Under the pieces are notes generated by a model. The model was not told the DNA's origin. It did no database searches and worked only from the letters and a program-made list of their open reading frames with translations. From NCBI GenBank assembly GCA_017992215.1, contig JAGOOZ010000002.1, forward strand, positions 1-36,177: a DNA stretch of 36,177 nt. Direction: 5' to 3'. Source of the DNA: Minisyncoccota bacterium (lineage in GTDB: Bacteria > Patescibacteriota > Minisyncoccia > Phycocordibacterales > UBA9973). Below are positions 3,862-36,177 of the stretch, one piece after another; position 1 is the stretch's first letter; each line of letters begins with the position of its first letter. The translations under genes were made by a program, and so were the position numbers.

Positions 3862-3862
3862 A

Positions 3863-4031
3863 TATGGATAACCCTGTGGAAAACATATGTATATAAAAAA
3901 TAAAAATGTGTATAAAATATCTTTTTTTAAAAAATATCCACATCATACACAAACAATACCAACCACACGAAATATGTTTTTATAAAAAACCCTTATCTGT
4001 AAAATGTAAAAAAGTAATCCACATATCCACA
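3863..4031. promoter_or_regulatory. candidate oriC: DnaA-box cluster in the dnaA-dnaN spacer
   Basis: Five DnaA-box-like 9-mers in a very AT-rich 216-bp spacer: TATGGATAA 3863-3871, TGTGGAAAA 3875-3883, ATATCCACA 3934-3942, TAATCCACA 4015-4023, ATATCCACA 4023-4031. Confidence 0.6.
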
Positions 4032-4077
4032 GGAATAATAGTAATAATAATTTATTAATAGATAATATACACATACA

Positions 4078-5175
4078 ATGAAACTAGAATGCTCAATTGA
4101 AAAAATAAGAAATGCACTTACTACCGTAGAGAGACTCACAGGTAAGAATCTTACACTTCCTGTATTAGGAAGTGTTCTTTGGGTTGCAACAGGTAAGACA
4201 CTTAAATTAAGAGCTACAAATCTTAGTGTAGGTATAGAAATAGATGTTGATGCAAAAATAGAAAAAGAAGGTGTTGTTGCTATTAAGGGTAATATTCTTC
4301 CTTCTCTTTTTGCTGTATTGTCTGGTGACTCAAAGGTTTCATTTGAACTTATTAATGATAATCTTTCTGTGAAAACAAAAACAAGTACAATACTCTTGAA
4401 GAGTATTTCTCATGAAGATTTTCCAACGATTCCAATTGTTTCAGGTGATCAGTGTGAAATTCCAGTAAAAAAGTTTATTGAAGGTCTCAAGGCTGTGTAT
4501 TATAGTGCTTCTCTTTCAGAGATAAAACCAGAGATAGGAAGTATTTATATTTATCCAGAGGATGATATGTTGGTATTTGTTGCCACAGATTCATTTCGAC
4601 TTGCTGAGAAAAAAATAAAAATTAAACAAAAACTTACATTTACTGGTATTCTTATTCCCCTTAAAAACACCGTTGAATTAATTAAAGTTTTTGATGATAG
4701 TACCGAGGATGTTGTTATTACACTTCAAAAAAATCAGATTTCATTTAAAACAAACACTATTTACTTTACCTCACGTGTTGTTGATGGTAATTTCCCAGAC
4801 TACAAACAAATCATTCCTAAAAAATCAACAACAGAAGCAGTTATTTTGAAACAAGATTTTATTTCATCTTTAAAGATATCAAATATTTTTACAGACAAAT
4901 TAAACCAAGTAACATTTACAATAAATCCTAGCGATAAGATTTTTGAAATAGAATCAAAAAATTCTGATATTGGAGAAAATACAACCTTTGTTTCAGGTTC
5001 ATTTACAGGAGAAGAGGTTGTTGCTCACTTTAATTATAAATATATTCTTGATTGTTTTAATTCAATTAGTGGTGATAGTCTTAAAATAGAATTAAATGGA
5101 AATAATAAACCAATGATTTTGCGAACAGTTGGGGATGTTTCATTTATGTATTTAGTAATGCCTATGAACAGGTAA
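4078..5175 (+). CDS. dnaN: DNA polymerase III beta sliding clamp
   Basis: 365 aa with the three-domain clamp length. Follows dnaA. C-terminal MPMR-type ending (LVMPMNR). Confidence 0.95.
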   Translation: MKLECSIEKIRNALTTVERLTGKNLTLPVLGSVLWVATGKTLKLRATNLSVGIEIDVDAKIEKEGVVAIKGNILPSLFAVLSGDSKVSFELINDNLSVKTKTSTILLKSISHEDFPTIPIVSGDQCEIPVKKFIEGLKAVYYSASLSEIKPEIGSIYIYPEDDMLVFVATDSFRLAEKKIKIKQKLTFTGILIPLKNTVELIKVFDDSTEDVVITLQKNQISFKTNTIYFTSRVVDGNFPDYKQIIPKKSTTEAVILKQDFISSLKISNIFTDKLNQVTFTINPSDKIFEIESKNSDIGENTTFVSGSFTGEEVVAHFNYKYILDCFNSISGDSLKIELNGNNKPMILRTVGDVSFMYLVMPMNR

Positions 5176-7961: not shown

Positions 7962-8027
7962 ATAGATAATAGTACCACACGAAAGTGTGATACGGACAAA
8001 GTGGGATAAATATGATAAAGTGTAAAA

Positions 8028-9215
8028 ATGAACAGTGAAACACAGAATGAATTACTCATACGGGGTATTGCAAATATATATCCAAGCAAAGAGTACGTTG
8101 AGGCTCGTATTCTTCGTGGTGAAAAACTCACTATCTATCTCGGCATTGACCCAACAGGCCCAACGCTCCATCTCGGGAATGCGATTCCACTCAAAAAACT
8201 TGCTGATTTTCAAAAAGCAGGACATAAAGTTATCCTTTTGATTGGTGATTTTACCGCGATGATTGGAGATCCAGACAAGCTATCTGCTCGGGTACCATTA
8301 ACCCGCAAGCAGGTTTTGTCTAACCTTAAAAATTACAAGAAACAGGCATCAAAACTTCTTTCTTTTTCGGGTAAAAACAAAGCAGAAATAAAATTCAACT
8401 CGAAATGGCTTTCAAAAATGAGATTTGAAGACGTACTTTCACTTGCATCACAGATGACTGTTTCTCAGATGCTTGAGCGAGATATGTTTAAGCGACGAAT
8501 AGAAGAACAAAAACCTATTTTTATTCATGAATTTATGTACCCCCTTATGCAGGGGTATGATAGTGTTGCGATGGATGTTGATGGTGAGATTGGTGGAAAT
8601 GATCAAACATTTAACATGCTTTGTGGAAGAAACCTACTAAAAACACTTAAAAACAAAGAAAAATTTGTTTTAACCATGAAGCTTCTTGAAGACAATAACG
8701 GAAAGAAGATGGGAAAGACAGAGGGCAATATGGTTGCTCTTTCTGATACACCAGAAGATATGTACGGAAAGGTAATGAGCTGGGCTGATAGTCTTATTGT
8801 GCCAGCACTAGAACTTTCAACAACTGTTTCTCTTTTAGAAATTGAAACGATGCGTGTGTCACTTGAAGACGGAACGCTTCACCCTCGTGACGCAAAAATG
8901 CGACTTGCTCGTGAGATAGTGTCTCTTTTTTACGATACAAAAAAAGCACAGAGTGCAGAAGATTCTTTTATTCAAACATTTAAAAATAATGCGACTCCAG
9001 AAGATATACTTACTGTTTCTGTAAAAGGACAGGCACTCCTCGTTGATATTCTCATTTCACATGCAATTGTTTCATCAAAAAGTGAGTTCGCTCGACTCGT
9101 AGAAGGTGGTGCGGTGACAAATCTCGACACACAAGAAAAAGTTTCAGACCCAAAAATAAAATCTATTCCTGGTTGTTATCGGGTGGGGAAGGCGCGATTT
9201 ATTAAAATTATATAA
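8028..9215 (+). CDS. tyrS: tyrosyl-tRNA synthetase
   Basis: 395 aa with a class I HIGH-type motif (PTGPTLHLGN), KMSKS-type KMGKT, and a C-terminal S4-like domain. Confidence 0.93.
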   Translation: MNSETQNELLIRGIANIYPSKEYVEARILRGEKLTIYLGIDPTGPTLHLGNAIPLKKLADFQKAGHKVILLIGDFTAMIGDPDKLSARVPLTRKQVLSNLKNYKKQASKLLSFSGKNKAEIKFNSKWLSKMRFEDVLSLASQMTVSQMLERDMFKRRIEEQKPIFIHEFMYPLMQGYDSVAMDVDGEIGGNDQTFNMLCGRNLLKTLKNKEKFVLTMKLLEDNNGKKMGKTEGNMVALSDTPEDMYGKVMSWADSLIVPALELSTTVSLLEIETMRVSLEDGTLHPRDAKMRLAREIVSLFYDTKKAQSAEDSFIQTFKNNATPEDILTVSVKGQALLVDILISHAIVSSKSEFARLVEGGAVTNLDTQEKVSDPKIKSIPGCYRVGKARFIKII

Positions 9216-20281: not shown

Positions 20282-20489
20282 CTTGTCTTAATAAAAGAAC
20301 GAGTGCATCGTATGCAAAGAATAATAATTTTGCTGATGCAAATGAACGAATGATCGTATACATATCTTTCCCGATATATGCCCCTCTATCATTGGGTAAA
20401 TGTTGGAAGTATATGTGTAACGAAGAACACCTTACATACATTTTATACTTCATAGAAAAAGAGTGCAAGGGGAAGTGTGGATAACAGTT

Positions 20490-20507
20490 GTGCCCTCGGT
20501 AGGAATC
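20490..20507 (-). repeat. 18-bp exact duplicate of the tRNA-Lys 3' end
   Basis: GTGCCCTCGGTAGGAATC at 20490-20507 is identical to 20642-20659 (T-loop to discriminator of tRNA-Lys, plus 1 nt). Confidence 0.8.
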
Positions 20508-20521
20508 TTTCATTACATGAA

Positions 20522-20600
20522 CAGTATACCTTTTCAGCTCGCAGGGTGCGAGCAAAGAAAAGCTTTTCGATTCCTACACACAAGCAAAATGATTTGCTTG
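20522..20600 (+). repeat. structured module, copy L (contains a T-arm-matching segment for tRNA-Lys)
   Basis: Blocks are CAGTATACCTTTTC (20522-20535), hairpin GCTCGCA-GGG-TGCGAGC, GAAAAGCTTTTCGATTCCTACACACAAGC (20557-20585), and hairpin CAAGCAAA-ATGA-TTTGCTTG (20581-20600, with 20581-20585 shared with the preceding block). Collinear with 27561-27641 (minus) and 36100-36177 (plus). Confidence 0.5.
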
Positions 20601-20611
20601 TTCGAGTAAAT

Positions 20612-20635
20612 AAAAAACGACCTAAGTCGTTTTTT
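20612..20635. terminator. bidirectional intrinsic terminator downstream of tRNA-Lys
   Basis: AAAAAACGAC, loop CTAA, GTCGTTTTTT. Confidence 0.75.
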
Positions 20636-20642
20636 ATTCGGG

Positions 20643-20715
20643 TGCCCTCGGTAGGAATCGAACCTACGACCATCTCCTTAAAAGGGAGCTGCTCTACCGA
20701 CTGAGCTACGAGGGC
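20643..20715 (-). tRNA. tRNA-Lys (anticodon UUU)
   Basis: Hand-folded 73-nt cloverleaf: GCCCTCG/CGAGGGC acceptor, GCTC/GAGC D-stem, anticodon loop CTTTTAA, T-arm GTAGG-TTCGATT-CCTAC, discriminator A. CCA is not encoded. Confidence 0.9.
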
Positions 20716-20856
20716 ATATAATAAACAAAGCTAATTATCACATATTCAGTTGAAACCGCTACGACTGAACTATAAGGGTATATCTTTATAACGTGTAAAA
20801 AAGATTTTACTTGTGAAAATTCTCTTTTACACGTACACTCAAAAATATCACACTTT

Positions 20857-24307: not shown

Positions 24308-24379
24308 GGTCCCGTCGTTCAATGGATAGGACGTAACTTTGCGGAAGTTATGATGCAGGTTCGATTCCTGCCGGGATCA
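24308..24379 (+). tRNA. tRNA-Arg (anticodon GCG)
   Basis: Hand-folded 72-nt cloverleaf: GGTCCCG/CGGGATC acceptor, GTTC/GGAC D-stem, anticodon stem TAACT/AGTTA with loop TTGCGGA, T-arm GCAGG-TTCGATT-CCTGC, discriminator A. CCA is not encoded. Confidence 0.85.
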
Positions 24380-24444
24380 CAGAGTCGAGTGCTAGTTCGA
24401 GCACTCGACAAGGGTCATCAAATACCTTTGTTATAAAGAACAAC

Positions 24445-24479
24445 AAAAATAGCTAACGAGATAATCGTTAGCTATTTTT
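24445..24479. terminator. bidirectional intrinsic terminator after the recombinase gene
   Basis: AAAAATAGCTAACGA, loop GATAA, TCGTTAGCTATTTTT. Confidence 0.75.
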
Positions 24480-24495
24480 GTTTGAAAAGTTAGTT

Positions 24496-25779
24496 TTACG
24501 CTTTAACTGTTATGATCTTATTTTTCAAAACTAGATCGTTTTTTATACAATCAAGAACCGATCGTTTTTCTAAAATTGTTCCGTCTTTCAAAACGAACTT
24601 CATGTAATTTCTGAGATCAACTTTCTGTATATCAGCTGGGTTGTCCTTTCCTAAAAACATCGCTTGAAGCTTTTTGAATTTCTTGATTTCAAGATTCAGC
24701 TTTTCATTAAGTTGTACTTCATTAAGGTCCAAAGTTCCTGCCATTTTCTGAAATTCTTTTAATAAGTCATCTTCGTTTATTGCAGGATTTGTGCATTTTC
24801 TATCTTTAGATTTAGTACATCTATAATAGACATGTCTATTTACTCCGCCATTTAGTAATTTCTTAAATTTCTCGTCTGCCGTAATACCTGATCCGCACAT
24901 TCCGCACTTCACCATTCGAGTAAACGCAAACTCTTTTCCATGAGTTTTTATAACCTGCGTTTTGATTGCTGATCGGCAATCATCAAAAAGTTCCTTGCTA
25001 ATTATTGGCGTATGCTTTCCGTCGTACCAGTTTCCACTGCCTTGTGGAAACTCAAATCGTCCGTAATAAAAGGTGTTGTTGATTATTTTAAATACATTTC
25101 CAAGACTTAGATAAAACCCTCTATGTGTTTTGAAATTCAGTTCATACCGTAACCATGAGTATACTCTCATTCCGCTCCACCGTTCGTATGCGATTTTCTC
25201 AAAAATCTGTTTAATTACTGGTGCTCGTTCGGGATCAATCTCTACTTCGCATTTCGCTAGTCTCTTGTTTGATTTCCTGTATCCAGTTGGCGGTTGTACT
25301 GGCCATAATCCCATTTCGCACCGTGCTCTCATTCCTCGCTTCACATTGATACTCTTGTTGTCATTCTCTAGTTTTGCTTGAGAGCATAAAATCATCAAGA
25401 GGAATTTATCACTTGGCGAATTAGTAAATGTTTGCCCGAATGTCTTGATTTGAGTTAACTTCTTTTGATCAATACGATCCACCAACTTTCCCAAATCTCC
25501 AGCATTTCTTGAAAGACGATCTGGTGCCCAGGTAATAATTGCGTTGAATATGCCGTCGTCTATGTCTTTTAGTATTTCCTCAAACACGGGTCGTTGACCT
25601 GACTCTTTTGCACTATGAGATTCACGACGGATCTCTACCACATTCAAACCTTCACGCTCTGCTATTTGGCTCATTTCCTTGACCTGGGAATCAATGGAAA
25701 GGGCTTGCTTTTCTTCGTCTTCGGTTGATTTGCGGGCGTATAAGCAATATTTAAGATTATCTTTTATTATTTCTGTCAT
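24496..25779 (-). CDS. large serine recombinase (resolvase/invertase catalytic domain, recombinase domain, zinc ribbon)
   Basis: N-terminus LYARKSTEDEEKQALSIDSQ (catalytic Ser context), DRLSRN motif, a central recombinase domain, and a Cys cluster (CGMCGSG...YYRCTKSKDRKC). Its 3' end lies 116 bp from tRNA-Arg. Confidence 0.9.
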   Translation of the reverse strand: MTEIIKDNLKYCLYARKSTEDEEKQALSIDSQVKEMSQIAEREGLNVVEIRRESHSAKESGQRPVFEEILKDIDDGIFNAIITWAPDRLSRNAGDLGKLVDRIDQKKLTQIKTFGQTFTNSPSDKFLLMILCSQAKLENDNKSINVKRGMRARCEMGLWPVQPPTGYRKSNKRLAKCEVEIDPERAPVIKQIFEKIAYERWSGMRVYSWLRYELNFKTHRGFYLSLGNVFKIINNTFYYGRFEFPQGSGNWYDGKHTPIISKELFDDCRSAIKTQVIKTHGKEFAFTRMVKCGMCGSGITADEKFKKLLNGGVNRHVYYRCTKSKDRKCTNPAINEDDLLKEFQKMAGTLDLNEVQLNEKLNLEIKKFKKLQAMFLGKDNPADIQKVDLRNYMKFVLKDGTILEKRSVLDCIKNDLVLKNKIITVKA

Positions 25780-25897
25780 ACATATATTGATGACAGAGAA
25801 AGATAGTTTTGCTAAGACTATGCAGAACTAGATATACGTCGCATACTCGCAAATAGCTTTTACCTCTTTATTTTAATCTATTTTGTGATATAGTAAC

Positions 25898-26040
25898 TTT
25901 ACTACATATTGAAGCCTGTGAACCACTGACAAGGGGGAGGCAACGATACGGAGCCAGAGAAAAAAGTAGGGTGGCACCGCGATATACTATCGCCCCTGCG
26001 AGCTTATCAACATAAGTTCGAAGGGGCATTTTTGTTCCTT
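25898..26040 (+). promoter_or_regulatory. T-box riboswitch leader (transcription attenuation) for aspS
   Basis: Conserved T-box sequence AGTAGGGTGGCACCGCG (25965-25981). Terminator stem 25992-26027 (GCCCCTGCGAGCTTAT...ATAAGTTCGAAGGGGC), whose 5' half overlaps the antiterminator 3' strand, followed by a T-tract at 26029-26034. Candidate specifier GAC-A at 25928-25931. Possible extended -10 TGATATAGT just upstream. Confidence 0.8.
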
Positions 26041-26054
26041 CATCTCTAATAAAT

Positions 26055-27347
26055 ATGATTATAAGAACCTATATTAAAGACATTCCTGAATATTCAGGGA
26101 AAGAGGCTACTATCGTAGGCTTTGCTCACACTATTCGTGCGCAGAGTAAAATTGCATTCCTTATCGTTCGCGATGTGACTGGCATCTTACAGACAGTCGT
26201 TACCGCTGAACAGGTCGAGGCTTTTCAAATTGCTAAGGAACTTAGCACAGAATCAGTATTGAAGGTTACAGGTCTCGTGAAAGAGGCAGCGCAGGCACCT
26301 AGTGGTTATGAAATAGAAGTTAGTACAATTGAAGTACTTTCATCTGCCGATGCGCAGCTACCGATACCAATTCTTGAAAAGAAAGGCGGAGAAGAAACTG
26401 AAGCGCCTATACGTTTCGACTATCGTTGGATTGATCTTCGCAAGCCCGATCATCTAAAGATTTTCAAAGTATGGACGGAACTTGAAAAAGGCTTCCGTGA
26501 CTACTGGGATAAAAATGATTTTATTCAAATCTATACACCTTCATTTATGTCAACGCCAAGCGAAACTGGCGCTGAGGTATTTGAAGTAAACTACTTTGAC
26601 CGCAAAGCATATCTTGCACAATCACCGCAATTCTATAAGCAAATGGCTATTGCAAGTGGTTTTGAAAAAGTGTTTATGACAGGCCCCGTATTCCGCGCAG
26701 AGCTTTCATTTACTACTCGACACCTTACCGAATTTACTGGTTGGGATTTTGAAATGGCGTACATTGAATCTCATCAAGACATCATTGTTGCCGAGGAAAA
26801 CATGATTGTTTCCGGATTTACTAGATTAAAGGAAAAGTTCCCAGAGCTTCGTCTAGAAATCCCTAGTATGCCTTTTCCGCAGATCACTATGGTTGAAGCA
26901 AAAAGGATACTTGCAGAGCGTGGCGTGGCAAGCGGAGAAGAACACGATCTCTCTCCAGAAGAAGAACGGGCTATCAGTGAATATGTGCGAGAAAAACACA
27001 ACCACGACTTCGTATTCATTACTGAATACCATGTATCAAAAAGTGCCTTTTACCATATGCGCAACGAGGAGGGTCGTGGCAAGCGCGCAGACCTTTTGTT
27101 TAAAGGAATCGAAGTAACAACACTCGCTCAACGCGAACATCGCATTGAGATTCTTGAAAAACAAGCAAAGGAAAAAGGGATGTCATTTGAAGAACTGAAA
27201 GATTATCTCAACTTTTTCCGCTGGGGATGCCCTCCACATGGAGGTGCAGGTATTGGCCCTGGACGATTCATTATGAAAATCCTCGACCTGCCAAACGTTC
27301 GCGAGGCGACTTATCTTCCAAGAGATGTTAAGCGATTAAATCCATAA
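26055..27347 (+). CDS. aspS: aspartyl-tRNA synthetase, archaeal/eukaryotic-type (class IIb, about 430 aa)
   Basis: N-terminal OB anticodon-binding domain, AYLAQSPQFYKQ, motif 2 FRAE..T.RHL.EF, QREHR, and C-terminus GCPPHGGAGIGPGRFIMKILDLPNVREATYLPRDVKRLNP, which matches the archaeal-type AspRS ending (FPRD..RL.P). Confidence 0.92.
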   Translation: MIIRTYIKDIPEYSGKEATIVGFAHTIRAQSKIAFLIVRDVTGILQTVVTAEQVEAFQIAKELSTESVLKVTGLVKEAAQAPSGYEIEVSTIEVLSSADAQLPIPILEKKGGEETEAPIRFDYRWIDLRKPDHLKIFKVWTELEKGFRDYWDKNDFIQIYTPSFMSTPSETGAEVFEVNYFDRKAYLAQSPQFYKQMAIASGFEKVFMTGPVFRAELSFTTRHLTEFTGWDFEMAYIESHQDIIVAEENMIVSGFTRLKEKFPELRLEIPSMPFPQITMVEAKRILAERGVASGEEHDLSPEEERAISEYVREKHNHDFVFITEYHVSKSAFYHMRNEEGRGKRADLLFKGIEVTTLAQREHRIEILEKQAKEKGMSFEELKDYLNFFRWGCPPHGGAGIGPGRFIMKILDLPNVREATYLPRDVKRLNP

Positions 27348-27357
27348 TAGTAAAAAT

Positions 27358-27382
27358 GTTACAGCAATCTGTAACCTTTTTA
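27358..27382 (+). terminator. intrinsic terminator after aspS
   Basis: GTTACAG, loop CAAT, CTGTAAC, then CTTTTTA. Confidence 0.75.
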
Positions 27383-27392
27383 CTTAAACCTG

Positions 27393-27442
27393 TGTCACTT
27401 TTGTCACTTTTTGTCGCTCGACAAGGTTCATTTAGGTATAAT
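27393..27442 (+). promoter_or_regulatory. phased TGTC(A/G)C triple repeat upstream of a consensus TATAAT
   Basis: TGTCAC 27393-27398, TGTCAC 27402-27407, TGTCGC 27412-27417 (9-10 bp phasing), then TATAAT at 27437-27442. No ORF follows. Confidence 0.35.
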
Positions 27443-27512
27443 GAAAATGCATGAAAAAGCCTTGTGGAGTAAGGAACCCCACGGTCGCACCACGACTAGG
27501 CTCACCCGTTAG

Positions 27513-27548
27513 AAAAAGAGCTGTCTTTGATAGACAGCCTTTTTCTTT
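27513..27548. terminator. bidirectional terminator-like hairpin inside the structured region
   Basis: AAAAAGA-GCTGTCT, loop TTGAT, AGACAGC-CTTTTTCTTT. Confidence 0.6.
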
Positions 27549-27752
27549 GGGTGATCCCGAAGAAGACATCTGCATGTCTTCTGTGCAGGAATCGAAAACC
27601 TTTTCCGTGTGAGTGTACTCACGAACGGAAAAGGTGTACTGATCCTGTGATTGAGTACAATCACCTACTGGGTAAGGGTCGATATGCGTACTCGCGGTCC
27701 TACCGTTGGTGTTGTTTTGATTACAAAACCACCAATCACGCGCCGTTGGCGA

Positions 27753-27769
27753 GATTACCCTGCCGGGAT
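27753..27769 (+). repeat. imperfect direct copy of the tRNA-Arg 3' end
   Basis: GATTACCCTGCCGGGAT compared with tRNA-Arg GATTCCTGCCGGGAT (24364-24378). There is an 11-nt exact core CCTGCCGGGAT plus GATT with a 2-nt insertion. Confidence 0.45.
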
Positions 27770-27774
27770 TTAAT

Positions 27775-28341
27775 TTACTTTAACACCTCCTCCAGTAACT
27801 TCGGAAATTCTTCTGTTCCCATATCTTCAAAACAGAAATGTCCCATGTTTTGAAATTCTCTAACTTCTATATTTTTTATTTTCTCTGTAAGTATCTTTAC
27901 GCTTTTCTGTACTTCCTCCATGTCATCATCTGAATTAAAAATAGTGACACCCTTTGTTTTTGAAACTAAATTTTCATCTGGTGTAAAATCAAACATTCCC
28001 GTTTCGAGTATTTTGTCAGGATCAATCCATGGAGCGACAAGCACAACCTTGCCAACATGTATATTATTTTCACTTAGATATCGAACAATAAAACCAGCAC
28101 CGCATGAGTGCCCAATGAGAGTCGTCTCTTCAGTGAGAGGGAATCGTTCAAATACTTCTTTCCATGCATTGTATTCTGGGTTGTACGGTACAGGCATATG
28201 AGGGTTCTCTGCTTGGAATCCTCTTTGTTCGAGTTGTTTTTTTATCCACGGAAGAAAGTGTGATTCTAGTGACCGCACTGGACCAAGGGTAAGATATTCA
28301 TCTTTCTCTGGCATTCCGTGAATAATGATTGCTGTTTTCAT
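27775..28341 (-). CDS. alpha/beta serine hydrolase (YdeN/RBBP9-like)
   Basis: 188 aa starting MKTAIIIHG. Nucleophile elbow GHSCG and later VVLVAPW. Size and layout match the small serine hydrolase family. Confidence 0.8.
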   Translation of the reverse strand: MKTAIIIHGMPEKDEYLTLGPVRSLESHFLPWIKKQLEQRGFQAENPHMPVPYNPEYNAWKEVFERFPLTEETTLIGHSCGAGFIVRYLSENNIHVGKVVLVAPWIDPDKILETGMFDFTPDENLVSKTKGVTIFNSDDDMEEVQKSVKILTEKIKNIEVREFQNMGHFCFEDMGTEEFPKLLEEVLK

Positions 28342-28353
28342 TGTGATGATAGA

Positions 28354-28827
28354 CTAGAGACCAATTTTTTCCATGAATACCATTGATGGTGATTCATCGA
28401 GTTCTTCTTCGAGGGGTACAACCTTCAGGAGATTTTCATTTACCTGTGCGACAAGTTCATTTGGGAGTCTGAGTGTATACACAGGGAGAAACTTTTTATC
28501 AATATGCACAATGAGCTTGGCCCCTGTGTTGTCTTTTTTGATTTTGAATCCTAGTACCTTTTTCCATCCATATGATTCGGTGCCCATAGTGAATCCATTT
28601 GTTTCTATTGTGATAGATATATTCTGTGGGGGACGAGCAGAGAAAAGCATGAGTGAGCCACCAGCAACAAGAATAAAAAGTCCAAACATATAATTTCCCG
28701 TGAAAAGCGCAATACCAAATGCGAGAAAGATTGCAATGCCGACACCCCAAAACCAATCAACACTACGGTCTTTATGGTCGTATTCAGGGATGCTCCATGT
28801 AATTGTATCGAGACGTATTTCTTCCAT
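28354..28827 (-). CDS. membrane protein, two TM helices plus a small soluble domain, unknown function
   Basis: Start moved to MEEIRLD (ATG 28825-28827). The longer track ORF would run through the terminator at 28859-28888 and into the upstream gene. Confidence 0.55.
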   Translation of the reverse strand: MEEIRLDTITWSIPEYDHKDRSVDWFWGVGIAIFLAFGIALFTGNYMFGLFILVAGGSLMLFSARPPQNISITIETNGFTMGTESYGWKKVLGFKIKKDNTGAKLIVHIDKKFLPVYTLRLPNELVAQVNENLLKVVPLEEELDESPSMVFMEKIGL

Positions 28828-28858
28828 ATGAGTAAGTATACCATCCAAGGGTGAAAAT

Positions 28859-28888
28859 AAAACACCCTGACCGAAGTCAGGGTGTTTT
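28859..28888. terminator. bidirectional intrinsic terminator
   Basis: AAAACACCCTGAC, loop CGAA, GTCAGGGTGTTTT. Confidence 0.75.
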
Positions 28889-28900
28889 ATGAAATATATT

Positions 28901-29689
28901 TTATTTCTTGAGTGCTGCTTGGAGATCAAGACGAGCCTGTGTTGTTGTATTTTTGAATGCTTGTTCTGCTGCTTTGATAGCTTCATCACGAGCTTTCTTT
29001 AATTCAAGAACAGCAGGATTCTTTTCGTTGTTCTTTCGTGCATCTTGAATCATCTTGCGTGCATTGTTGATAGTCTTACTAAATGTTGCTTGAGCATTTT
29101 TACCTGAAACACCCTTTGCACAGTCAGCTTTTGCTTTTGCAAGTGCTTGTTCTACTGATGTCTTAAATGTTGTTATTGCTGTTGTGACAGATGCAGTATG
29201 TCCACTGAGGATACTCGTAACACCAGTCTGGTATGTTGTAACTGCTGTATCAACAGCAATTCTACGTGTTTCAAGTGCCTGCTCTACTGTTGTCTTGTAT
29301 GTAGCAAGGGCAGCTTTTTGTTCATCATTTTTTACTTGTGCTTCCATTTTGCCCCAGTTCGCAACTCGTTTACTGTCTGACTTGAAACGAGCCTCGGCCT
29401 TTTTGGCGTTTACTTGTGATTCTCTTTGTGCGAGATTCTCGCTCTTTTTACTAAGTGCGTCTGCGTTTTTTGTTTCGATGTCTTTGATTTGTTCTGTAAA
29501 TTTCTTTGATGCATCATTGATTCGAGCACAAAAATTTGCGGATGAAGTAGCTGTTCCTTTTGATTGCGTTGTTGATGCAGAACGCACGGTTGATGTTACT
29601 TTTGTGTCTTCTGCAAATGCCATCATTGGAAGAAGAGAGAATGCAACAAGAGTAGTCGCGCCTATTTTTTTGAGATTAAAATATTTCAT
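28901..29689 (-). CDS. secreted alpha-helical (coiled-coil-like) hypothetical protein
   Basis: Signal peptide MKYFNLKKIGATTLVAFSLLPMMAFA. A/K/T/E-rich with internal repeats (TAVTTYQTGV / TAITTFKTSV). Confidence 0.6.
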   Translation of the reverse strand: MKYFNLKKIGATTLVAFSLLPMMAFAEDTKVTSTVRSASTTQSKGTATSSANFCARINDASKKFTEQIKDIETKNADALSKKSENLAQRESQVNAKKAEARFKSDSKRVANWGKMEAQVKNDEQKAALATYKTTVEQALETRRIAVDTAVTTYQTGVTSILSGHTASVTTAITTFKTSVEQALAKAKADCAKGVSGKNAQATFSKTINNARKMIQDARKNNEKNPAVLELKKARDEAIKAAEQAFKNTTTQARLDLQAALKK

Positions 29690-29903
29690 TGTTTTCTATG
29701 ATTAGCGTCTCCATGTCTGGATAGTCTAATTCGTTTACTTGTAATTCGTCTTCGAGAATACCTTCGTCTTCTATTGTCTCATTTTGAACTGCGAGATCCA
29801 TAATCGTTTCACCTGCTGGTGTGCGATCAGAAAAAGAGAAATATGCGATGAAAGCAATAACCAAAAGAACAAGAATTATTACTGTACGATTTTTTTCCCA
29901 CAT
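29676..29903 (-). CDS. small membrane-anchored acidic protein (75 aa)
   Basis: MWEKNRTVIILVLLVIAFIAYF TM anchor, then an acidic tail. Overlaps the downstream gene start by 14 nt (operon-like). Start moved to the ATG at 29901-29903. Confidence 0.45.
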   Translation of the reverse strand: MWEKNRTVIILVLLVIAFIAYFSFSDRTPAGETIMDLAVQNETIEDEGILEDELQVNELDYPDMETLIIENNEIF

Positions 29904-30006
29904 AGTAATAGTTTGGTATATTGTTTGATAAATAATTGTCGACTCACATATACAAGTATACCTTAAATTAACCTTCCGTGATAGCACTCCTAGCTTGGTG
30001 TATACT

Positions 30007-31020
30007 ATGGATATGAATAAAATATACAAATTTCTTACACTTTCTCTTTTTGCTTGTATGCCATTTTTAACACATGCACACGTGGCGTATGTTGTTTCTC
30101 CTAGTGAATTATCAGAAAACCTCGGACCCGATACAAGCTATCTCATGGGAGTTTTTTCTGAACCATCAAATCTCTTGCTCATGGTGGGGACCGTCATTGG
30201 TATTCTTCTTGTGGTACTCATTTCTAAGAAGAGTAAACGAATTACGCATTTTTTTTCTGGTGTGTCAGAAAAACTCACTTCGTATCATGAATTTATTCCG
30301 TGGATTATTCGTCTCTCACTCGGGATTTTACTTATCGGAGCGGGGACAGAGGGGGCTCTCATTTCTCCTATTATTTCAAATGCATGGGGGTACTCAATGA
30401 TACAGATTGCGCTTGGTTTTGCGTTTTTACTTGGATTCTTGCTCGTACCATCAGCACTTGTCACTATTGGTTTGTATATTGTCGGGCTCACACAGGATAT
30501 CTATCTCATTGGGAATATCGATGTGCTCGCACTTGCGCTCGGACTCCTTGTTTTCCATAGTGCACGTCCAGGGGTTGATGATATTTTAGGGATTTCACTG
30601 TTACGATTTTTGAAAATAGAACGGCATTATCTCGCACTCCTCGTACGTGTGCTTGTCGGTGTTGGGTTCGCGTATTTGGCCTTGTATGAAAAATTATTGA
30701 ACCCACACATTTCTGAAGTTGTGGTGATGAATTATGGCTTAGCGTCTCTGATTCCTGTGTCTCCAGAAATGTGGGTATTTTCTGTCGGAATTATTGAGCT
30801 TATTCTTGGTATCTTTATTTTTATTGGATTCTATACTCGTACATCTGCGTGTGTGGCTATCGTCGTGCTCTCGACAACATTTTTCTTTTTCAAAGAATCA
30901 GTGTATTCACACGTAACACTTTTTGGAATTCTTTCGATTATTGCAATCGAAGGTGGAGGAATGTTTAGTATTGATAGGTTTTTTGAAAATCGGAAAAACG
31001 TAATTCAACAAAATTCTTAA
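30007..31020 (+). CDS. polytopic membrane protein, possibly DoxX-like C-terminal half
   Basis: N-terminal signal-like helix, then about 8 hydrophobic helices. The family call is weak. The track start at 29995 is a TTG; I prefer the ATG at 30007 (or 30013). Confidence 0.55.
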   Translation: MDMNKIYKFLTLSLFACMPFLTHAHVAYVVSPSELSENLGPDTSYLMGVFSEPSNLLLMVGTVIGILLVVLISKKSKRITHFFSGVSEKLTSYHEFIPWIIRLSLGILLIGAGTEGALISPIISNAWGYSMIQIALGFAFLLGFLLVPSALVTIGLYIVGLTQDIYLIGNIDVLALALGLLVFHSARPGVDDILGISLLRFLKIERHYLALLVRVLVGVGFAYLALYEKLLNPHISEVVVMNYGLASLIPVSPEMWVFSVGIIELILGIFIFIGFYTRTSACVAIVVLSTTFFFFKESVYSHVTLFGILSIIAIEGGGMFSIDRFFENRKNVIQQNS

Positions 31021-31021
31021 C

Positions 31022-32167
31022 CTATTTTTTCGCAAGTGTTGCGTCGTAGACTGCACTTGATACATCTGTATCAAACATGCTCGGAATGATATTTTCTGGG
31101 GTTGGATTTTTCACAACACGAGCGAGTGATTCAGCAACGCGTACAAAAATCTCATTATTAAATTGAGGAATATTGTGATCAAGCATTGCTTTGAAAAGGT
31201 GAGGGAAGACGAGTGAGTTGTTTATTTGATTTGGGAAATCAGAACGTCCTGTCGCCATGACAAATACTCCCGCATCCTTTGCCTCAGAGGGGAGTATTTC
31301 TGGTGTTGGGTTTGCAAGGGCGAAAATAATTGGACGCTCTGCCATCGTGTGAATCATTTCTTTGGTGAGAACGCCTGGCTTTGAAAGTCCGATAAATACA
31401 TGTGCATCGCGGAGTGCTTCACCCAATCCACCCGTACGTTCTTCTATGGTACTTCCTGCGAGGAGCTCTTTCTTTTCTTTTGTGAGGTCTGTGCGTCCAC
31501 TGTGAATGATTCCTTTACTGTCACAGAAAATAGTTTGTGTAATTCCGTATGTGTGAAGTAGGCGACCCGTCGCAACCCCTGCTGCTCCGACACCTGAGAG
31601 TACAACAATAGCTTCTTCCTTTGTGAGTGCGCGGAGTGAGAGTGCATTTATGAGTGCTGAAAGTGCGACAGTTGCCGCACCCCATTGATCATCGTGCATG
31701 ACGGGAATAGAGAGTTCTTTTCGGAGACGTTCTTCTATTTCAAAACATCGTGGCGCAGAGATATCTTCGAGATTAATTCCTCCAAAGACAGGAGCGATTT
31801 GTTTAACTGCTTTGATTATCTCTTCAGTATCTTTTGTGTCGAGACAGATAGGGAACGCATCAACACCACCGAATTGTTTGAATATCGCTGCCTTTCCTTC
31901 CATAACAGGAATCGCAGCGAGTGGGCCGAGGTCTCCCAATCCGAGGATTGCTGTTCCGTCCGAGACGATAGCGACGGTATTTCTTTTGATTGTGTAGTCA
32001 CGTGCAGTGCTCGGGTCCTGTGCGATTGCTTCACAGACACCTGCAACACCAGGAGTATAGGCAAGCGAGAGGTCGGCGCGGTCGGCGAGGGGGACAGTGC
32101 TTATAATTTCGAGTTTACCGTGGTGTGCCTTATGAAGTTCTTTTGATTGTTCGTAGAGTGGATTCAT
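31022..32167 (-). CDS. NAD(P)-dependent malic enzyme (short MaeB-type)
   Basis: LSLAYTPGVA, VAIVSDGTAILGLGDLG, PVMEGKA.IFK.FGGVDAFPI, GGINLEDI.APRCFEIE and HDDQWG motifs. Start moved to MNPLYEQ (ATG 32165-32167). Confidence 0.92.
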   Translation of the reverse strand: MNPLYEQSKELHKAHHGKLEIISTVPLADRADLSLAYTPGVAGVCEAIAQDPSTARDYTIKRNTVAIVSDGTAILGLGDLGPLAAIPVMEGKAAIFKQFGGVDAFPICLDTKDTEEIIKAVKQIAPVFGGINLEDISAPRCFEIEERLRKELSIPVMHDDQWGAATVALSALINALSLRALTKEEAIVVLSGVGAAGVATGRLLHTYGITQTIFCDSKGIIHSGRTDLTKEKKELLAGSTIEERTGGLGEALRDAHVFIGLSKPGVLTKEMIHTMAERPIIFALANPTPEILPSEAKDAGVFVMATGRSDFPNQINNSLVFPHLFKAMLDHNIPQFNNEIFVRVAESLARVVKNPTPENIIPSMFDTDVSSAVYDATLAKK

Positions 32168-32254
32168 GGGATATATGATATCACGGAGTGTGATAAAAGA
32201 AAGCATCGATATACGTGGTATACTATATATTATACGTAACGTTGATTTTTATCT

Positions 32255-32407
32255 ATGAATAAAGGAACAAATCTAATTATTATCGCAGCTGGTCTCTCTC
32301 TTGTTGCTGCTGTGTATATGTGGTTTATGGGAGACAAGGATGGAGGATTGTTTGTTGGGTTGTGGGTACCGTCACTCCTTGCTCTCGCTACGTATCTAAA
32401 GAAATAG
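32255..32407 (+). CDS. small two-helix membrane protein (50 aa)
   Basis: Hand translation: MNKGTNLIIIAAGLSLVAAVYMWFMGDKDGGLFVGLWVPSLLALATYLKK. Below the ORF-track cut-off. More protein-like than the overlapping listed ORFs 32230..32415(-) and 32320..32523(+). Confidence 0.4.
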   Translation: MNKGTNLIIIAAGLSLVAAVYMWFMGDKDGGLFVGLWVPSLLALATYLKK

Positions 32408-32482
32408 ATGAGCATGCAATTTATTTTTCTTTTTGGTGTTTTTATTTCAGCCCTCGCCTGTATCGGTATCTATACTCGGTAA
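32408..32482 (+). CDS. tiny hydrophobic peptide (24 aa), speculative
   Basis: MSMQFIFLFGVFISALACIGIYTR. The ATG abuts the previous stop and the ORF ends 3 nt before the terminator. Confidence 0.25.
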   Translation: MSMQFIFLFGVFISALACIGIYTR

Positions 32483-32484
32483 AT

Positions 32485-32516
32485 AAAAAAGCAGTGAATA
32501 TATTCACTGCTTTTTT
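32485..32516. terminator. bidirectional intrinsic terminator
   Basis: AAAAAAGCAGTGAATA / TATTCACTGCTTTTTT perfect palindrome. Confidence 0.75.
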
Positions 32517-32524
32517 ATTTTAAT

Positions 32525-32977
32525 TTATCCGAGAAGGTATACGACAAGTAAAAATAATCCACCCCACCAGCCAATATCAGAAATGAGGAGACTCATCATT
32601 ATTTTATGTTGCCATGAAGGAGGGAGCAGTTCGGACGCGCCCCCATCCTTTTTGCGCGCGAGGAGAAAAGGACTTACTTCAAACGACAAGAATAATCCGT
32701 TCATTATGAGTACACATGCAATGATTGTGTGGATGAGAGGGATACCCGCAAACGGTTCGTGGCGATACAAGATACTTCCTCCAATGAGAGCAAGTGTGAT
32801 ACCAATCCATATTAACGGCTTTGTAACTTTGTGTGTGCGTGTCGTCGCTTCTGTCCAATAGTTTGATCTGCGTCCGAGGAATCCATGAATATCAATAACA
32901 GTCACTGCGCCAAGTCCAATAACAAAACCCGCGAGGAGTATAAAGAGTCCAATGATATCAATCGAGATGAGTGTCAT
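32525..32977 (-). CDS. membrane protein (4 TM), unknown function
   Basis: 150 aa, hydrophobic throughout. No motif recognised. Confidence 0.6.
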   Translation of the reverse strand: MTLISIDIIGLFILLAGFVIGLGAVTVIDIHGFLGRRSNYWTEATTRTHKVTKPLIWIGITLALIGGSILYRHEPFAGIPLIHTIIACVLIMNGLFLSFEVSPFLLARKKDGGASELLPPSWQHKIMMSLLISDIGWWGGLFLLVVYLLG

Positions 32978-32996
32978 ATATGTATGAATGAGATGA

Positions 32997-33509
32997 TTAT
33001 GCTAGCCCAAGTATTTTTAAAATAACAGGAGCAAGCGGGTCGGCTGATGTGCCGTAGACCATGACCCCTCCGAGAAGTCCCGTGAGAGAGATAGCAACAA
33101 CACCAAGTAGTGCAAGGACGAGGGTGAGTGTTCGATTTGTGAGGAGTTTCTCTATTTTTATCAAAAGTGTAGAGATGCTACCAAGAGGAAGCTTTTTTGA
33201 AAGATACGGATTGAGTATGAAAAGTATTTCTCCTCCAAGTAATAATCCATATATCCATGTAGAAGCGAGTGCAAAGAATGCATGCATTTCTACGAGTGCT
33301 TCCTCGGGGCGGACGAGGTGCTCGGCGAGTTCTCCTGTCGTGTTTGAAAGAAACGCTCCAAGTATACCTGCAAGGAGAAGTACCTGTTGTATGTGTCTCC
33401 ATGAAAGAGAAGGAATGAGACGTTCAAAAGGAAGTATTCGAATGAGTGAATAAAGCAATAGAAACGCAATGGGGAAGTGAACAAATAATGGATGTATATT
33501 GTATGTCAT
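32997..33509 (-). CDS. DUF2231-like membrane protein
   Basis: N-terminus IHPLFVHFPIAFLL is the DUF2231 hallmark. 170 aa, 4-5 TM. Confidence 0.7.
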   Translation of the reverse strand: MTYNIHPLFVHFPIAFLLLYSLIRILPFERLIPSLSWRHIQQVLLLAGILGAFLSNTTGELAEHLVRPEEALVEMHAFFALASTWIYGLLLGGEILFILNPYLSKKLPLGSISTLLIKIEKLLTNRTLTLVLALLGVVAISLTGLLGGVMVYGTSADPLAPVILKILGLA

Positions 33510-33522
33510 ATCTATAAGTATA

Positions 33523-34095
33523 TCACTGTTTCTTTCGTTTGATCGAGTACACCATGAATGAGTTGATGAGTATCATTATAATTGAGTGAAGTGTTGTTGC
33601 GATATTGTATGCTCCGAGCGAGAAGAGTGTGAGTACATGGCGTGCGACATTCATCTCGTAGAGGCGAGGACGTTCTGTTTCTGGGCGAGCCCATGTTTTG
33701 CGAAGTGTTGGTATAAACGCGACGATATCGATACAGACAACAATAATTACAGAAATTGTCGGGTCTTTTGTAATCATCCATGGAATTAATCCGAGGATTG
33801 CGATTGCCAGAAAATAATTATCCATAGCACGAATAGGCCCCGCACTACCCTTGAATAGATATTTGAGAGAAAAAAGAAAAATGAGAATAGTGAACCCTTC
33901 TGCGATTCCTGTGGGGAGAGCGCCGATACCTGCACCTTTTGCAAGCCCTCCAAAGAATGTCGTCATTGAAACAATGGACCACACAAGCCATGTGTAGGGG
34001 TGGGGTTGCACGTCTCCTTTGATGACACTTTTGAGATATGAAATGTTTCCAATGATGGCAAGGATTCCGGCGATAATCGCAAGTGTTTCTTTCAT
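33523..34095 (-). CDS. membrane protein (6-7 TM), unknown function
   Basis: 190 aa, hydrophobic. Weak PQ-loop-like feel only. Confidence 0.6.
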   Translation of the reverse strand: MKETLAIIAGILAIIGNISYLKSVIKGDVQPHPYTWLVWSIVSMTTFFGGLAKGAGIGALPTGIAEGFTILIFLFSLKYLFKGSAGPIRAMDNYFLAIAILGLIPWMITKDPTISVIIVVCIDIVAFIPTLRKTWARPETERPRLYEMNVARHVLTLFSLGAYNIATTLHSIIMILINSFMVYSIKRKKQ

Positions 34096-34106
34096 TGTTT
34101 TATTTT

Positions 34107-34154
34107 AGCATTTTTGGGGGAGGGGGGTCTGAGTATCTTTTTCGAATCTCACTG
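34107..34154 (+). repeat. truncated copy of the structured-module 5' part; left direct repeat of the 1.9-kb islet
   Basis: GAGTATCTTTTTCGAATCTCACTGATTCTGTACA (34121-34154) matches 36073-36106 at 28 of 34 positions. The upstream GGAGGGGGGTCT resembles GGAGGCGGTGAGACCGC at 36056-36072. Confidence 0.6.
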
Positions 34155-36055: not shown

Positions 36056-36177
36056 GGAGGCGGTGAGACCGCGAGTACGCGTTTCGAATCTTACAGATTC
36101 TGTACACCTTTCGTATTTCTTCGAATGATTACATTCTCATAAATATACTCAAGGTTTTCGAATCTCACACAGAAAGC
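36056..36177 (+). repeat. structured module, copy W (runs off the window end)
   Basis: CGGTGAGACCGCGAGTACGC (36061-36080) resembles the minus strand of 27685-27704. CTGTACACCTTTCG is at 36100-36113. AAGGTTTTCGAATCTCACACAGAA at 36151-36174 is collinear with copies L and M. Confidence 0.5.

Follow-up and report, generated by a model that had tools for sequence, protein, structure and literature searches.

Elements driven by large serine recombinases (LSRs) and the related phage integrases (SPbeta SprA/YokA, TP901-1, A118, SCCmec CcrAB and Anabaena XisF) share a three-domain recombinase, a short core at both junctions without long direct repeats, a recombinase gene at one end, and a precise, reversible-looking insertion with an intact empty site. 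Genes for aminoacyl-tRNA synthetases (aaRSs) can be mobile or duplicated as well, as in the plasmid-borne ileS2/mupA and the T-box-regulated second copies thrZ and tyrZ, and mobile extra aaRS genes are a known route to resistance. The locus described here lies in 36,177 nucleotides of Minisyncoccota bacterium DNA (assembly GCA_017992215.1, contig JAGOOZ010000002.1, positions 1 to 36,177 of the forward strand), a stretch that we call the window. Positions 24377/24381-27505 of the window are very probably a minimal integrative element that is driven by an LSR and carries aspS, with its T-box leader, as the sole cargo. This aspS element has all of the above features of LSR elements. It is unlike the known ones in being 3.1 kb long with a single housekeeping cargo gene, in targeting the last bases of a tRNA gene, a habit usual in tyrosine integrases, in having no recognisable directionality factor, and in the unusually strong conservation of its LSR family (identities of 75-100% among the best 120 of more than 8000 homologues).

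A second described system close to this locus is that of the tycheposons of Prochlorococcus, elements that bring cargo to tRNA genes in streamlined genomes; they mostly use tyrosine recombinases (474 of 501) and have partial-tRNA repeats of about 40 nt (bioRxiv 10.1101/2020.12.28.424599). Like tycheposons, the elements described here have a tRNA-proximal integrase and small cargo modules, relics and partial elements accumulate, and successive integrations push older elements outward, as in the order tRNA-Glu, 672-aa LSR island and aspS element that we call context B below. Unlike tycheposons, the aspS element has a TCAC core of only 4 bp, lacks replication and packaging genes, and is found in another phylum. 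In its way of working the aspS element resembles a cargo tycheposon, but its 4-bp repeat and its lack of replication genes place it outside that group.

The empty site and the borders of the element

The borders were read from an empty site and from other copies of the element; the compared loci, from other genomes and metagenome contigs, are labelled L001-L237. One of the loci fetched by a scan for the module pattern described below, L158, comes from a relative that is 92.8% identical in nucleotides over window positions 27784-34127 and carries neither the LSR gene nor aspS. Its tRNA-Arg (99% identical) is followed directly by CCCGTTAG / CCCGTTAGAAAAAG, which is the window from 27506 onward, and the junction reads ...CCTGCCGGGATCA|CCCGTTAGAAAAAGAGC..., that is, left flank, TCAC and right flank, as predicted. 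The tRNA-Arg terminator and the structured Arg module beyond it are both kept in this empty site. A more distant syntenic relative, L189 (PolA 68%, RuvA 69%), has the 90-aa open reading frame (ORF) o23964, tRNA-Arg and the module in a row, again without the element. In the window itself, which we call context A, the order is S20, the 90-aa ORF and tRNA-Arg, then LSR and aspS, then a hydrolase gene. The element measures 3,129 bp (24377-27505) and has TCAC at each junction (24377-24380 and 27502-27505), the left junction reading ccgggaTCACagagtcgag and the right ctaggcTCACccgttag. Owing to the insertion, the trailer and terminator of tRNA-Arg now lie 3.1 kb from their gene.

Further copies were located by exact-protein look-ups. 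In a synteny test in 80 species-representative genomes, window flank genes conserved beside aspS were sought and none was found, the few exceptions being a distant LSR match 9 kb off in L063, weak matches to the hydrolase (29-30%) in L040 and L063, and stray matches to o32525 and o19536. The look-ups found the identical aspartyl-tRNA synthetase (AspRS) with an adjoining LSR in two surroundings, contexts A and B. Context B is represented by four independent assemblies (L090, L093, L097 and L099), in which the same 3,129 bp are 99.94% identical and nothing else is common to the two contexts. There the element lies between HIT-like, S66 peptidase and 60-aa ORF genes on one side and TsaD, an amino-acid kinase and LeuRS on the other, with the left junction taattagtTCACagagtcgag and the right junction ttaggcTCACatcaaacg. 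The element is separated from tRNA-Glu, 7.4 kb upstream, by a second LSR island (672-aa LSR) that begins at this tRNA gene, and a Glu-type module with a 13-nt copy of tRNA-Glu follows just past the element. Context C (L106/L107) is more diverged, at 86% nucleotide identity and protein identities of 94% for the LSR and 93% for AspRS. Its right junction falls at the position of window 27505 (...caaggcTCAC|taactcg) and is followed by TrxB, FtsZ and FtsA. All right junctions read ...AGGC-TCAC|flank and all left junctions read flank-TCAC|(A/C)GAGTCGAG, and the crossover dinucleotide probably lies within the TCAC core. The parts of the locus in context A are as follows.

24308-24380, + strand: tRNA-Arg(GCG) (ARAGORN, Rfam), whose final bases GGGATCA+C form the left, attL-side half of the integration site
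24377-24380: left junction core TCAC, start of the block common to contexts A and B; also in L100, L102, L103 and L233
24381-24495: element left end with hairpin, subterminal motif and terminator; conserved in the family
24384-24409: left-end hairpin GTCGAGTGCT/AGCACTCGAC
24404-24418: left-end subterminal motif CTCGACAAGGGTCAT
24442-24482: bidirectional terminator in the left end (terminator scan)
24496-25779, - strand: LSR gene, 427 aa, intact YARKST catalytic motif (Pfam, NCBIfam, PDB relatives, translation)
25780-25850: region upstream of the LSR gene, backbone, presumed promoter; homology to L233 ends at 25850
25886-26054, + strand: T-box leader of aspS, start of the cargo (specifier candidate, T-box motif, terminator)
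26055-27347, + strand: aspS, 430 aa, the only cargo gene (Pfam tRNA-synt_2 and OB fold; NCBIfam equivalog)
27348-27505: element right end, which ends the block common to contexts B and C
within 27348-27505: right-end backbone block CCTGTGTCACTTTTGTCAC
27358-27375: aspS terminator, within the right end
27417-27431: right-end subterminal motif CTCGACAAGGTTCAT
27502-27505: TCAC, after the element terminal sequence GGTCGCACCACGACTAGGC; also in L105, a member with Thoeris cargo
27506-27548, + strand: original tRNA-Arg trailer and intrinsic terminator (27520-27538; terminator scan), contiguous with tRNA-Arg in the L158 empty site

Two other candidates for border features were rejected. A 15-nt direct repeat, CTCGACAAGG(G/T)TCAT, at 24404-24418 and 27417-27431 was considered as a target duplication or border, and it lies inside both conserved ends; its recurrence in the ends of L100, L105 and L106 marks it as a subterminal backbone motif. 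A degenerate tRNA at 27440-27505 was likewise discarded, the stretch being the conserved right end of the element.

The sequence-only reading of this locus had noted a recombinase beside tRNA-Arg and reading toward it, and this is what is found, the LSR gene ending 115 nt from tRNA-Arg and being transcribed toward it. It had also joined the recombinase, the T-box leader, aspS and the structured RNA region beyond them into one integrative unit. The first three do form such a unit, as seen from the empty site and the other loci, and the structured region has to be taken out of it, being already present in the empty site. Relatives had been envisaged in which an uninterrupted tRNA-Arg is followed directly by the hydrolase gene; L158 does have the uninterrupted tRNA-Arg and lacks both LSR and aspS, but trailer, module and about 850 nt stand before its hydrolase gene.

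Proposed mechanism and spread

We propose that the LSR would recombine an attP site, reconstructed as ...GGTCGCACCACGACTAGGC-TCAC-AGAGTCGAGTGCTAG..., with an attB site at the tRNA 3′ end (...GGG(A)TCAC plus trailer), with the crossover taking place within TCAC. The circular junction predicted from this scheme would read ...CGACTAGGC-TCAC-AGAGTCGAGTGC.... Integration would leave the mature tRNA unchanged and would displace only its trailer and terminator. Among strains with the same locus, the element would also spread by homologous recombination.

The near-identity of the copies suggests that the element moved recently between the tRNA-Arg and tRNA-Glu sites and between strains, and it may still be active. 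Three loci with the element at the tRNA-Arg site (L091, L094 and L098) have flanks that are 94.7-97.0% identical to the window, an element that is 99.87-99.93% identical and a module that is 100% identical. The mismatch-free tract begins at about 24335 and ends only at 28101, inside the hydrolase gene and about 330 nt beyond the module. Such a tract argues for import of the occupied locus by homologous recombination and not for a site-specific border at the module end (27769). The idea that element and module move as one site-specific unit, which the 100% identical module in these loci had raised, was rejected because the tract continues to 28101. At this locus, all strains of the species that were seen carry the element, with the exception of the relative at about 93%.

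Farther afield, L111 and L112 encode an AspRS that is 90% identical in a distant host (PolA 51.5%, Fpg 45%, RuvA 40%). Their aspS (within 5709-7350 in L111 and 891-2532 in L112) is oriented as it would be in an integrated element and lies 48 nt beyond the tRNA-Lys 3′ end. The homology of L111 to the window covers 25886-27402, including part of the backbone block that is also in L105, without an LSR. The aspS of L111 and L112 is a decayed, recombinase-less relic of horizontal transfer.

In context B the second island (L090 3935-8322) has an unrelated LSR, and it encodes the 672-aa recombinase, a nucleotidyltransferase-like protein, a HIT-like protein and an S66 peptidase. The right end of this island (tataattagtTCAC) directly adjoins the aspS element, which makes the two tandem islands at one tRNA. 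By analogy with tycheposon accretion, the simplest order would be that tRNA-Glu first received the aspS element and that its end was later used again by the second island.

The recombinase and its family

The LSR contains Resolvase (PF00239, 76 bits), Recombinase (PF07508) and Zn_ribbon_recom (PF13408) domains, all above the Pfam cut-offs, and is similar to CcrB/XisF in NCBIfam and to SPbeta YokA and TP901-1 integrase in the PDB. Among the best 120 of its more than 8000 homologues, which are 75-100% identical, every source name given is that of a Paceibacterota/Parcubacteria-group bacterium. The LSR of L233 is 97.9% identical in amino acids and 86% in nucleotides, which suggests purifying selection. 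With its complete domains, YARKST motif and this sign of selection, the LSR looks functional.

Close relatives of this LSR stand in elements with different cargo and, where the ends are in view, with the same ends. In L233 (LSR 98% identical), L100 (91%) and L103 (89%) the recombinase is followed by a restriction-modification pair, a ResIII helicase and an N6/N4 methyltransferase, beyond which L100 and L103 have a diversity-generating retroelement. In L105, a Nomurabacteria genome (LSR 77% identical), it adjoins Thoeris genes, a methyltransferase and a DEAD helicase, with the same right end. Compared with the recombinase-proximal ends of other members, the left end of the aspS element shows 80% identity to L100/L102 and 73% (BLAST 72.6%) to L103/L104, and it shares a 27-nt exact match with L233. 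Conserved in the family are a left end of TCAC-(A/C)GAGTCGAGTGCTAGTTCGAGCACTCGA plus terminator, a stretch of about 70-110 nt that precedes the LSR gene, and a right terminus of GGTCGCAYCNCGAYTAGGC-TCAC; window positions 25780-25900 are similar to L103/L104/L105/L100. The left junctions abut tRNA-Glu in L100 and L233, a tRNA-like 3′ end in L102 (a short contig in which ARAGORN calls no tRNA), and the tRNA-like 3′ copy of a module in L103/L104.

Since homology to L233 ends at 25850, the cargo of the aspS element spans about 25851-27402 and the remainder is backbone. The backbone of the family consists of the left end, the LSR gene reading toward the tRNA, the approximately 70-110 nt upstream of it and a right end of about 100-150 nt. 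A cargo slot lies between the LSR upstream region and the right end, filled here by one gene, the T-box-regulated aspS.

In the right end of the Thoeris-carrying member, L105 has a 57-aa ORF (78-251, - strand) without a family match, and upstream of it lie TGTCACTTTTGTCAC at about 252-280 and a TGTCAC direct repeat. This ORF is a candidate regulator or directionality factor.

The aspS cargo and its probable T-box leader

The AspRS exceeds two NCBIfam equivalog cut-offs (NF003483 at 448 bits, cut-off 353; TIGR00458 at 377 bits, cut-off 368). By these matches the product is classed as a non-discriminating, 'archaeal-type' AspRS, aspartate--tRNA(Asn) ligase; the sequence-only reading, too, had called it archaeal-type. 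Rfam supports the T-box in part: the match of the leader to the T-box model RF00230 scores 26.2 bits, where the gathering score is 93, and takes in only model positions 183-216. Within the leader, a GAC(-A) specifier candidate lies at 25928-25930, the T-box/antiterminator with its UGGC bulge at 25964-25997 and the terminator at 25992-26034, and the fold has a z of -3.4. The UGGC bulge, as we take from established T-box knowledge, matches the G73 discriminator, as in tRNA-Asp. Uncharged tRNA-Asp would raise aspS expression through this leader. The leader is conserved upstream of aspS in L001, L002, L014, L023, L040, L063 and L070, and relatives in other genomes whose AspRS is about 70-75% identical keep a homologous one.

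The closest AspRS loci among the species-representative genomes all come from organisms named Paceibacterota or Zambryskibacteria-like. Relatives with an AspRS 84-88% identical have aspS, without an LSR, at one core locus (DnaB, Tyr/TrpRS, ABC-F, ..., aspS, ScpA, ScpB, MraY, FtsW), with MurG after FtsW in L234-L237. This ordinary core locus, together with the T-box leader in relatives, indicates that the cargo is the lineage's own aspS, captured, and not an exotic synthetase. The source would have been the normal chromosomal aspS of a related Paceibacterota lineage. In the recombinase-free relatives that are closest, gene calls leave just 61-97 nt in front of aspS at the core locus (L108 5903-6001; L235 4939-5001), and L108 has no homology to the window leader. 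Some native aspS copies may therefore lack the T-box of the mobile copy.

Structured modules that mirror tRNA ends

The structured region beyond the element is one of three modules in the window, each of which lies downstream of a tRNA and is matched to it (covariance model built from other genomes). Their coordinates and parts are given below.

27549-27772, + strand: Arg module (covariance model 27552-27700, 53 bits, E ~1e-10), host-side, outside the element and present in the empty site
27549-27559, + strand: left arm GGGTGATCCCG, reverse complement of the acceptor 3′ strand plus trailer
27562-27581, + strand: hairpin of the Arg module, 5′ of the anti-T 12-mer
27585-27596, + strand: anti-T 12-mer GCAGGAATCGAA, exact reverse complement of the T-loop and 3′ T-stem of tRNA-Arg
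about 27701-27752, + strand: type-2 hairpin insert, matching L115 (4110-4147)
27759-27769, + strand: tRNA 3′ copy CCTGCCGGGAT, an exact 11-mer of the tRNA-Arg 3′ end, within GATTACCCTGCCGGGAT (27753-27769)
20489-20612, - strand: Lys module (95.9 bits), downstream of tRNA-Lys (20640-20716, -)
36065-36177, - strand: Ser module (63.5 bits), cut by the window end

The Lys module ends in an exact 18-nt copy of the tRNA-Lys 3′ end (20490-20507), and the full Ser module with tRNA-Ser(TGA), just past the window end, is seen in L081 (40-127 / 175-317). The inverted T-arm 12-mer at 27585-27596 and the tRNA 3′ copy at 27753-27769 to which the sequence-only reading drew attention are both there. Its likeness between the tRNA-Arg and tRNA-Lys flanks also held up (28 nt at 89%; 75 nt at 75%), and so did its caution that such short matches are weak when taken alone: the 11-12-mers have BLAST E values of 1.9-6.5 within the window, which is not significant. 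They are parts of a recurrent structured module.

Metagenomes scanned for the conserved core gave at least 120 matching stretches. In the 80 module loci fetched (L113-L192), a tRNA on the same strand precedes 68 of the 85 matches, mostly by 56-96 nt, and the tRNAs listed cover 16 amino-acid types. Modules are thus found after tRNA genes for most amino acids in some Patescibacteria. With the covariance model, 117 copies were found in 570 kb: 69 right after a tRNA, 11 in tandem after another module and 10 at contig ends. A module is about 135 nt long. It opens with TGT, followed by the acceptor 3′ strand, discriminator and 2-5 trailer bases of the tRNA in reverse complement, then by an 8-bp hairpin with free sequence and the reverse complement of the T-loop and 3′ T-stem. 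Then come AAAAS, a variable hairpin closed by CTTTT/AAAAG and GTRTAC, and after these a 5-bp hairpin with a TGTAA loop and GA, sometimes with an extra GCGTACTCGCGG hairpin. At its close the 3′ T-stem, the acceptor 3′ strand, the discriminator and 1-3 trailer bases are copied in the sense direction.

Support for this fold is strong: 89.2% of the cells are paired, as against 59.5% when shuffled and 41-50% with slid partners, and 42 of the 43 pairs show compensatory change, in an alignment that was fitted to the model and so favours structure. The left arm is the complement of the 3′ strand of the tRNA and not of the 5′ strand in 15 of the 17 tRNAs with a non-Watson-Crick acceptor pair, and 53 of 56 modules mirror both of the positions at which the T-loop varies, as against a mean of 16 in permutations. 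The tRNA 3′ end, the intervening terminator and the left arm make one long palindrome. Some loci contain arrays of the form tRNA copy, unit, tRNA copy, unit (L179 4640-5040; L171 730-1110; L115, reverse strand, 850-1370), in which a unit consists of trailer, terminator and module, each is bounded by the same tRNA 3′ copy, and some arrays mix unit types. This layout is the pattern expected of repeated insertion or unequal exchange at the tRNA-end repeat. A second core type has the form TTGGTGTTGTTTTG-loop-CAAAACCACCAATCACGCGCCGTTGGCGAGA (window 27701-27752; L115 4110-4147), and in the Arg module of the window a type-1 module that breaks off at GCGGTCCTACCG is fused to the 3′ part of a type-2 module. 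Modules turn over quickly: the Arg module is 81% identical in L158 as against 93% for the flanks, and the Lys module is shorter and degenerate in L091, where the flanks are 95-97% identical to the window.

When 581 ORFs within 3.5 kb of modules were clustered, no protein family recurred beside them except spurious ORFs that overlap the modules, and the 80 module loci contain no LSR homologue. Rfam searches of the module regions up to an E value of 5 gave nothing but a chance-level match to Arrc11 (24 bits against 52, E 1.3) over the start of the Arg module. Literature searches found nothing specific that describes the module, or LSR islands in Patescibacteria.

The module also invites comparison with the attR fragments used by Islander (PMC4383910), since it likewise ends in a 13-20-nt copy of a tRNA 3′ end and forms arrays of the type S-unit-S-unit-S. 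Unlike those fragments, it has, besides the copy, an exact antisense version of this stretch of the tRNA, which a hairpin divides in two, and a conserved, covarying core; it also occurs without an island or integrase nearby, and in an empty site. With low confidence, we lean toward the module being a self-duplicating or integrative miniature element that acts at the DNA level and uses the tRNA end as its repeat. This would account for the strictly Watson-Crick arms, which include trailer bases, for the tandem heterologous arrays and for the rapid gain and loss. The main alternative is a processed tRNA-like RNA that presents the cognate acceptor/T helix, to which the conserved unpaired motifs and the T-loop-like TGTAA pentaloop would point. 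The counts of G-T and A-C mispairs in the third hairpin (9 and 6) are uninformative on the functional strand. On either reading, the tRNA-end attachment sequence is present a second time in the module, and at least one LSR island (L103) has integrated at such a copy. That modules form an undescribed class of structured elements 'programmed' by the neighbouring tRNA, perhaps as self-propagating integrative units or as landing pads for LSR islands that duplicate the attachment site, with the aspS element as one passenger, is a speculative idea that we consider rather improbable.

Two further differences between loci were seen beside modules. In L158 about 850 nt (7717-8566) that are absent from the window lie between the module's tRNA copy (...CCGGGATCA|gggc) and the hydrolase gene, and in the window the module's tRNA copy is cut at ...CCGGGAT, right before the hydrolase stop; either a deletion in the window or another insertion at the module tRNA copy of L158 lies behind this difference. 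In L082 1-4490 (GCA_018062135.1, 99% identical to the window here), another island sits at the tRNA-Ser 3′ end (...CCG|ctggttc), upstream of the Ser terminator and module. It encodes an APH-like kinase, a metallo-beta-lactamase fold protein, a glyoxalase, a serine hydrolase and an S66 peptidase, and the same site is unoccupied in L081.

Alternative explanations

The sequence-only reading had placed attR at the tRNA 3′ copy at 27753-27769, so that the unit would span everything from tRNA-Arg to that point, the structured region included. A displaced tRNA 3′ fragment is indeed the classic far mark of tRNA-integrated islands, and the near-identity tract shared with L091, L094 and L098 spans both element and module. 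We nevertheless judge such a unit highly improbable: the sequence common with contexts B and C ends at 27505, the right end given by all three contexts; the L158 empty site holds the module together with its tRNA copy; the identity tract runs on for about 330 nt into the hydrolase gene, to 28101; and like modules follow tRNA-Lys and tRNA-Ser without any element. Element homology ends about 250 nt before the tRNA fragment at 27759-27769, which the empty site keeps and which thus is not attR, and because the module and both repeats are already in the empty site, the repeats were not made by this integration. We give almost no credence to the opposite proposal, in which the recombinase alone was inserted and aspS is a vertically inherited resident gene. 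The host-like base composition of aspS would fit it, as would an AspRS of the type normal for the lineage with a T-box leader that relatives also have. Against this, the syntenic empty site lacks aspS as well as the LSR, which excludes the scenario that the sequence-only reading had named as its own refutation; LSR and aspS occur together at unrelated loci, at 99.94% and 86% identity; and relatives hold aspS at a different core locus.

The status of the captured gene in its host allows two further proposals. In the one that we find tentative but quite possible, the element aspS is the sole copy of the host, an essential gene having been captured, the native copy lost and the element fixed as an 'addictive' unit. 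These genomes are very small and usually have one aspS, the Tyr/TrpRS gene of the window has no adjacent aspS, unlike that of some relatives, and all strains of the species seen at this locus have the element, apart from the relative at about 93%. Only 36 kb of the host genome are in view, though, the window order around Tyr/TrpRS is not syntenic with those relatives in any case, and the presence of the element at a second locus, at 99.94% identity, suggests that it still moves, a hazard if it carried the only copy of an essential gene. We think it unlikely that aspS is instead a second, T-box-induced copy that serves as resistance or backup against AspRS inhibitors such as microcin-C-like aspartyl-adenylate mimics. 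The T-box would induce aspS upon charging failure, a 90% identical AspRS is found in a host whose PolA is 51.5% identical, and the context B island and the L082 tRNA-Ser island carry S66 peptidase, HIT-like and kinase-like genes. But the S66 and HIT matches, at 20-88 bits, are far under the family cut-offs, a second aspS was seen in no host, and the neighbouring cargo is that of a different element; the S66 peptidase and HIT neighbours were rejected as microcin-C immunity genes because their matches are too weak. Like ileS2/mupA, thrZ and tyrZ, the gene described here is an aaRS gene under T-box control that moves horizontally. It differs from them in that its vehicle is a minimal LSR element and not a plasmid or biosynthetic gene cluster, and in that status as a second copy or resistant variant is unsupported by the data here.

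Several observations count against the reading that we prefer, in which LSR and aspS form one mobile element, or at least limit it. The left flank of context B is the end of another island and not a tRNA, so that targeting of tRNA-Glu there depends on the proposed order of insertion, and the left junction of context C is out of view, the L106/L107 contigs stopping within the LSR gene. The sequence-only reading had suggested comparing composition with the flanks, and a GC and skew profile across the window showed no clear compositional island: GC content is about 0.36 in the LSR gene, 0.41-0.42 in aspS and 0.40-0.42 in the flanks, and as aspS resembles the flanks, composition lends no independent support. 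No candidate recombination directionality factor was recognised in the element. Its TGTCAC repeat is kept (about 27391-27408) and the 57-aa ORF that goes with it in L105 is gone, so that excision may need factors in trans or may have been lost. A search of viral contigs for the attP or excised-circle junction gave 0 matches.

Other features of the window

The window is chromosomal DNA. Its core genes include dnaA-dnaN, PBP1, Tyr/TrpRS, RuvB, PolA, Fpg and RuvA, among others, and its two tRNA genes are tRNA-Lys(TTT) (20640-20716, -) and tRNA-Arg(GCG) (24308-24380, +) according to ARAGORN and Rfam. The dnaA and dnaN genes (2515-5175) form the part of the window with the lowest GC content (0.29-0.33), which suggests that the replication origin region is probably inside the window.

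Significance

Correction of the element's right border exposed a widespread structured element that mirrors tRNA 3′ ends and may bear on why tRNA genes are integration hot spots. The conserved LSR family, with its defined short sites at tRNA ends, is a compact system and a possible tool in a group for which genetic tools are scarce. In the aspS element, an essential translation gene with its own tRNA-sensing switch is the sole cargo moving between tRNA genes and between differing Patescibacteria, tiny-genome bacteria in which the exchange of core functions is poorly understood.

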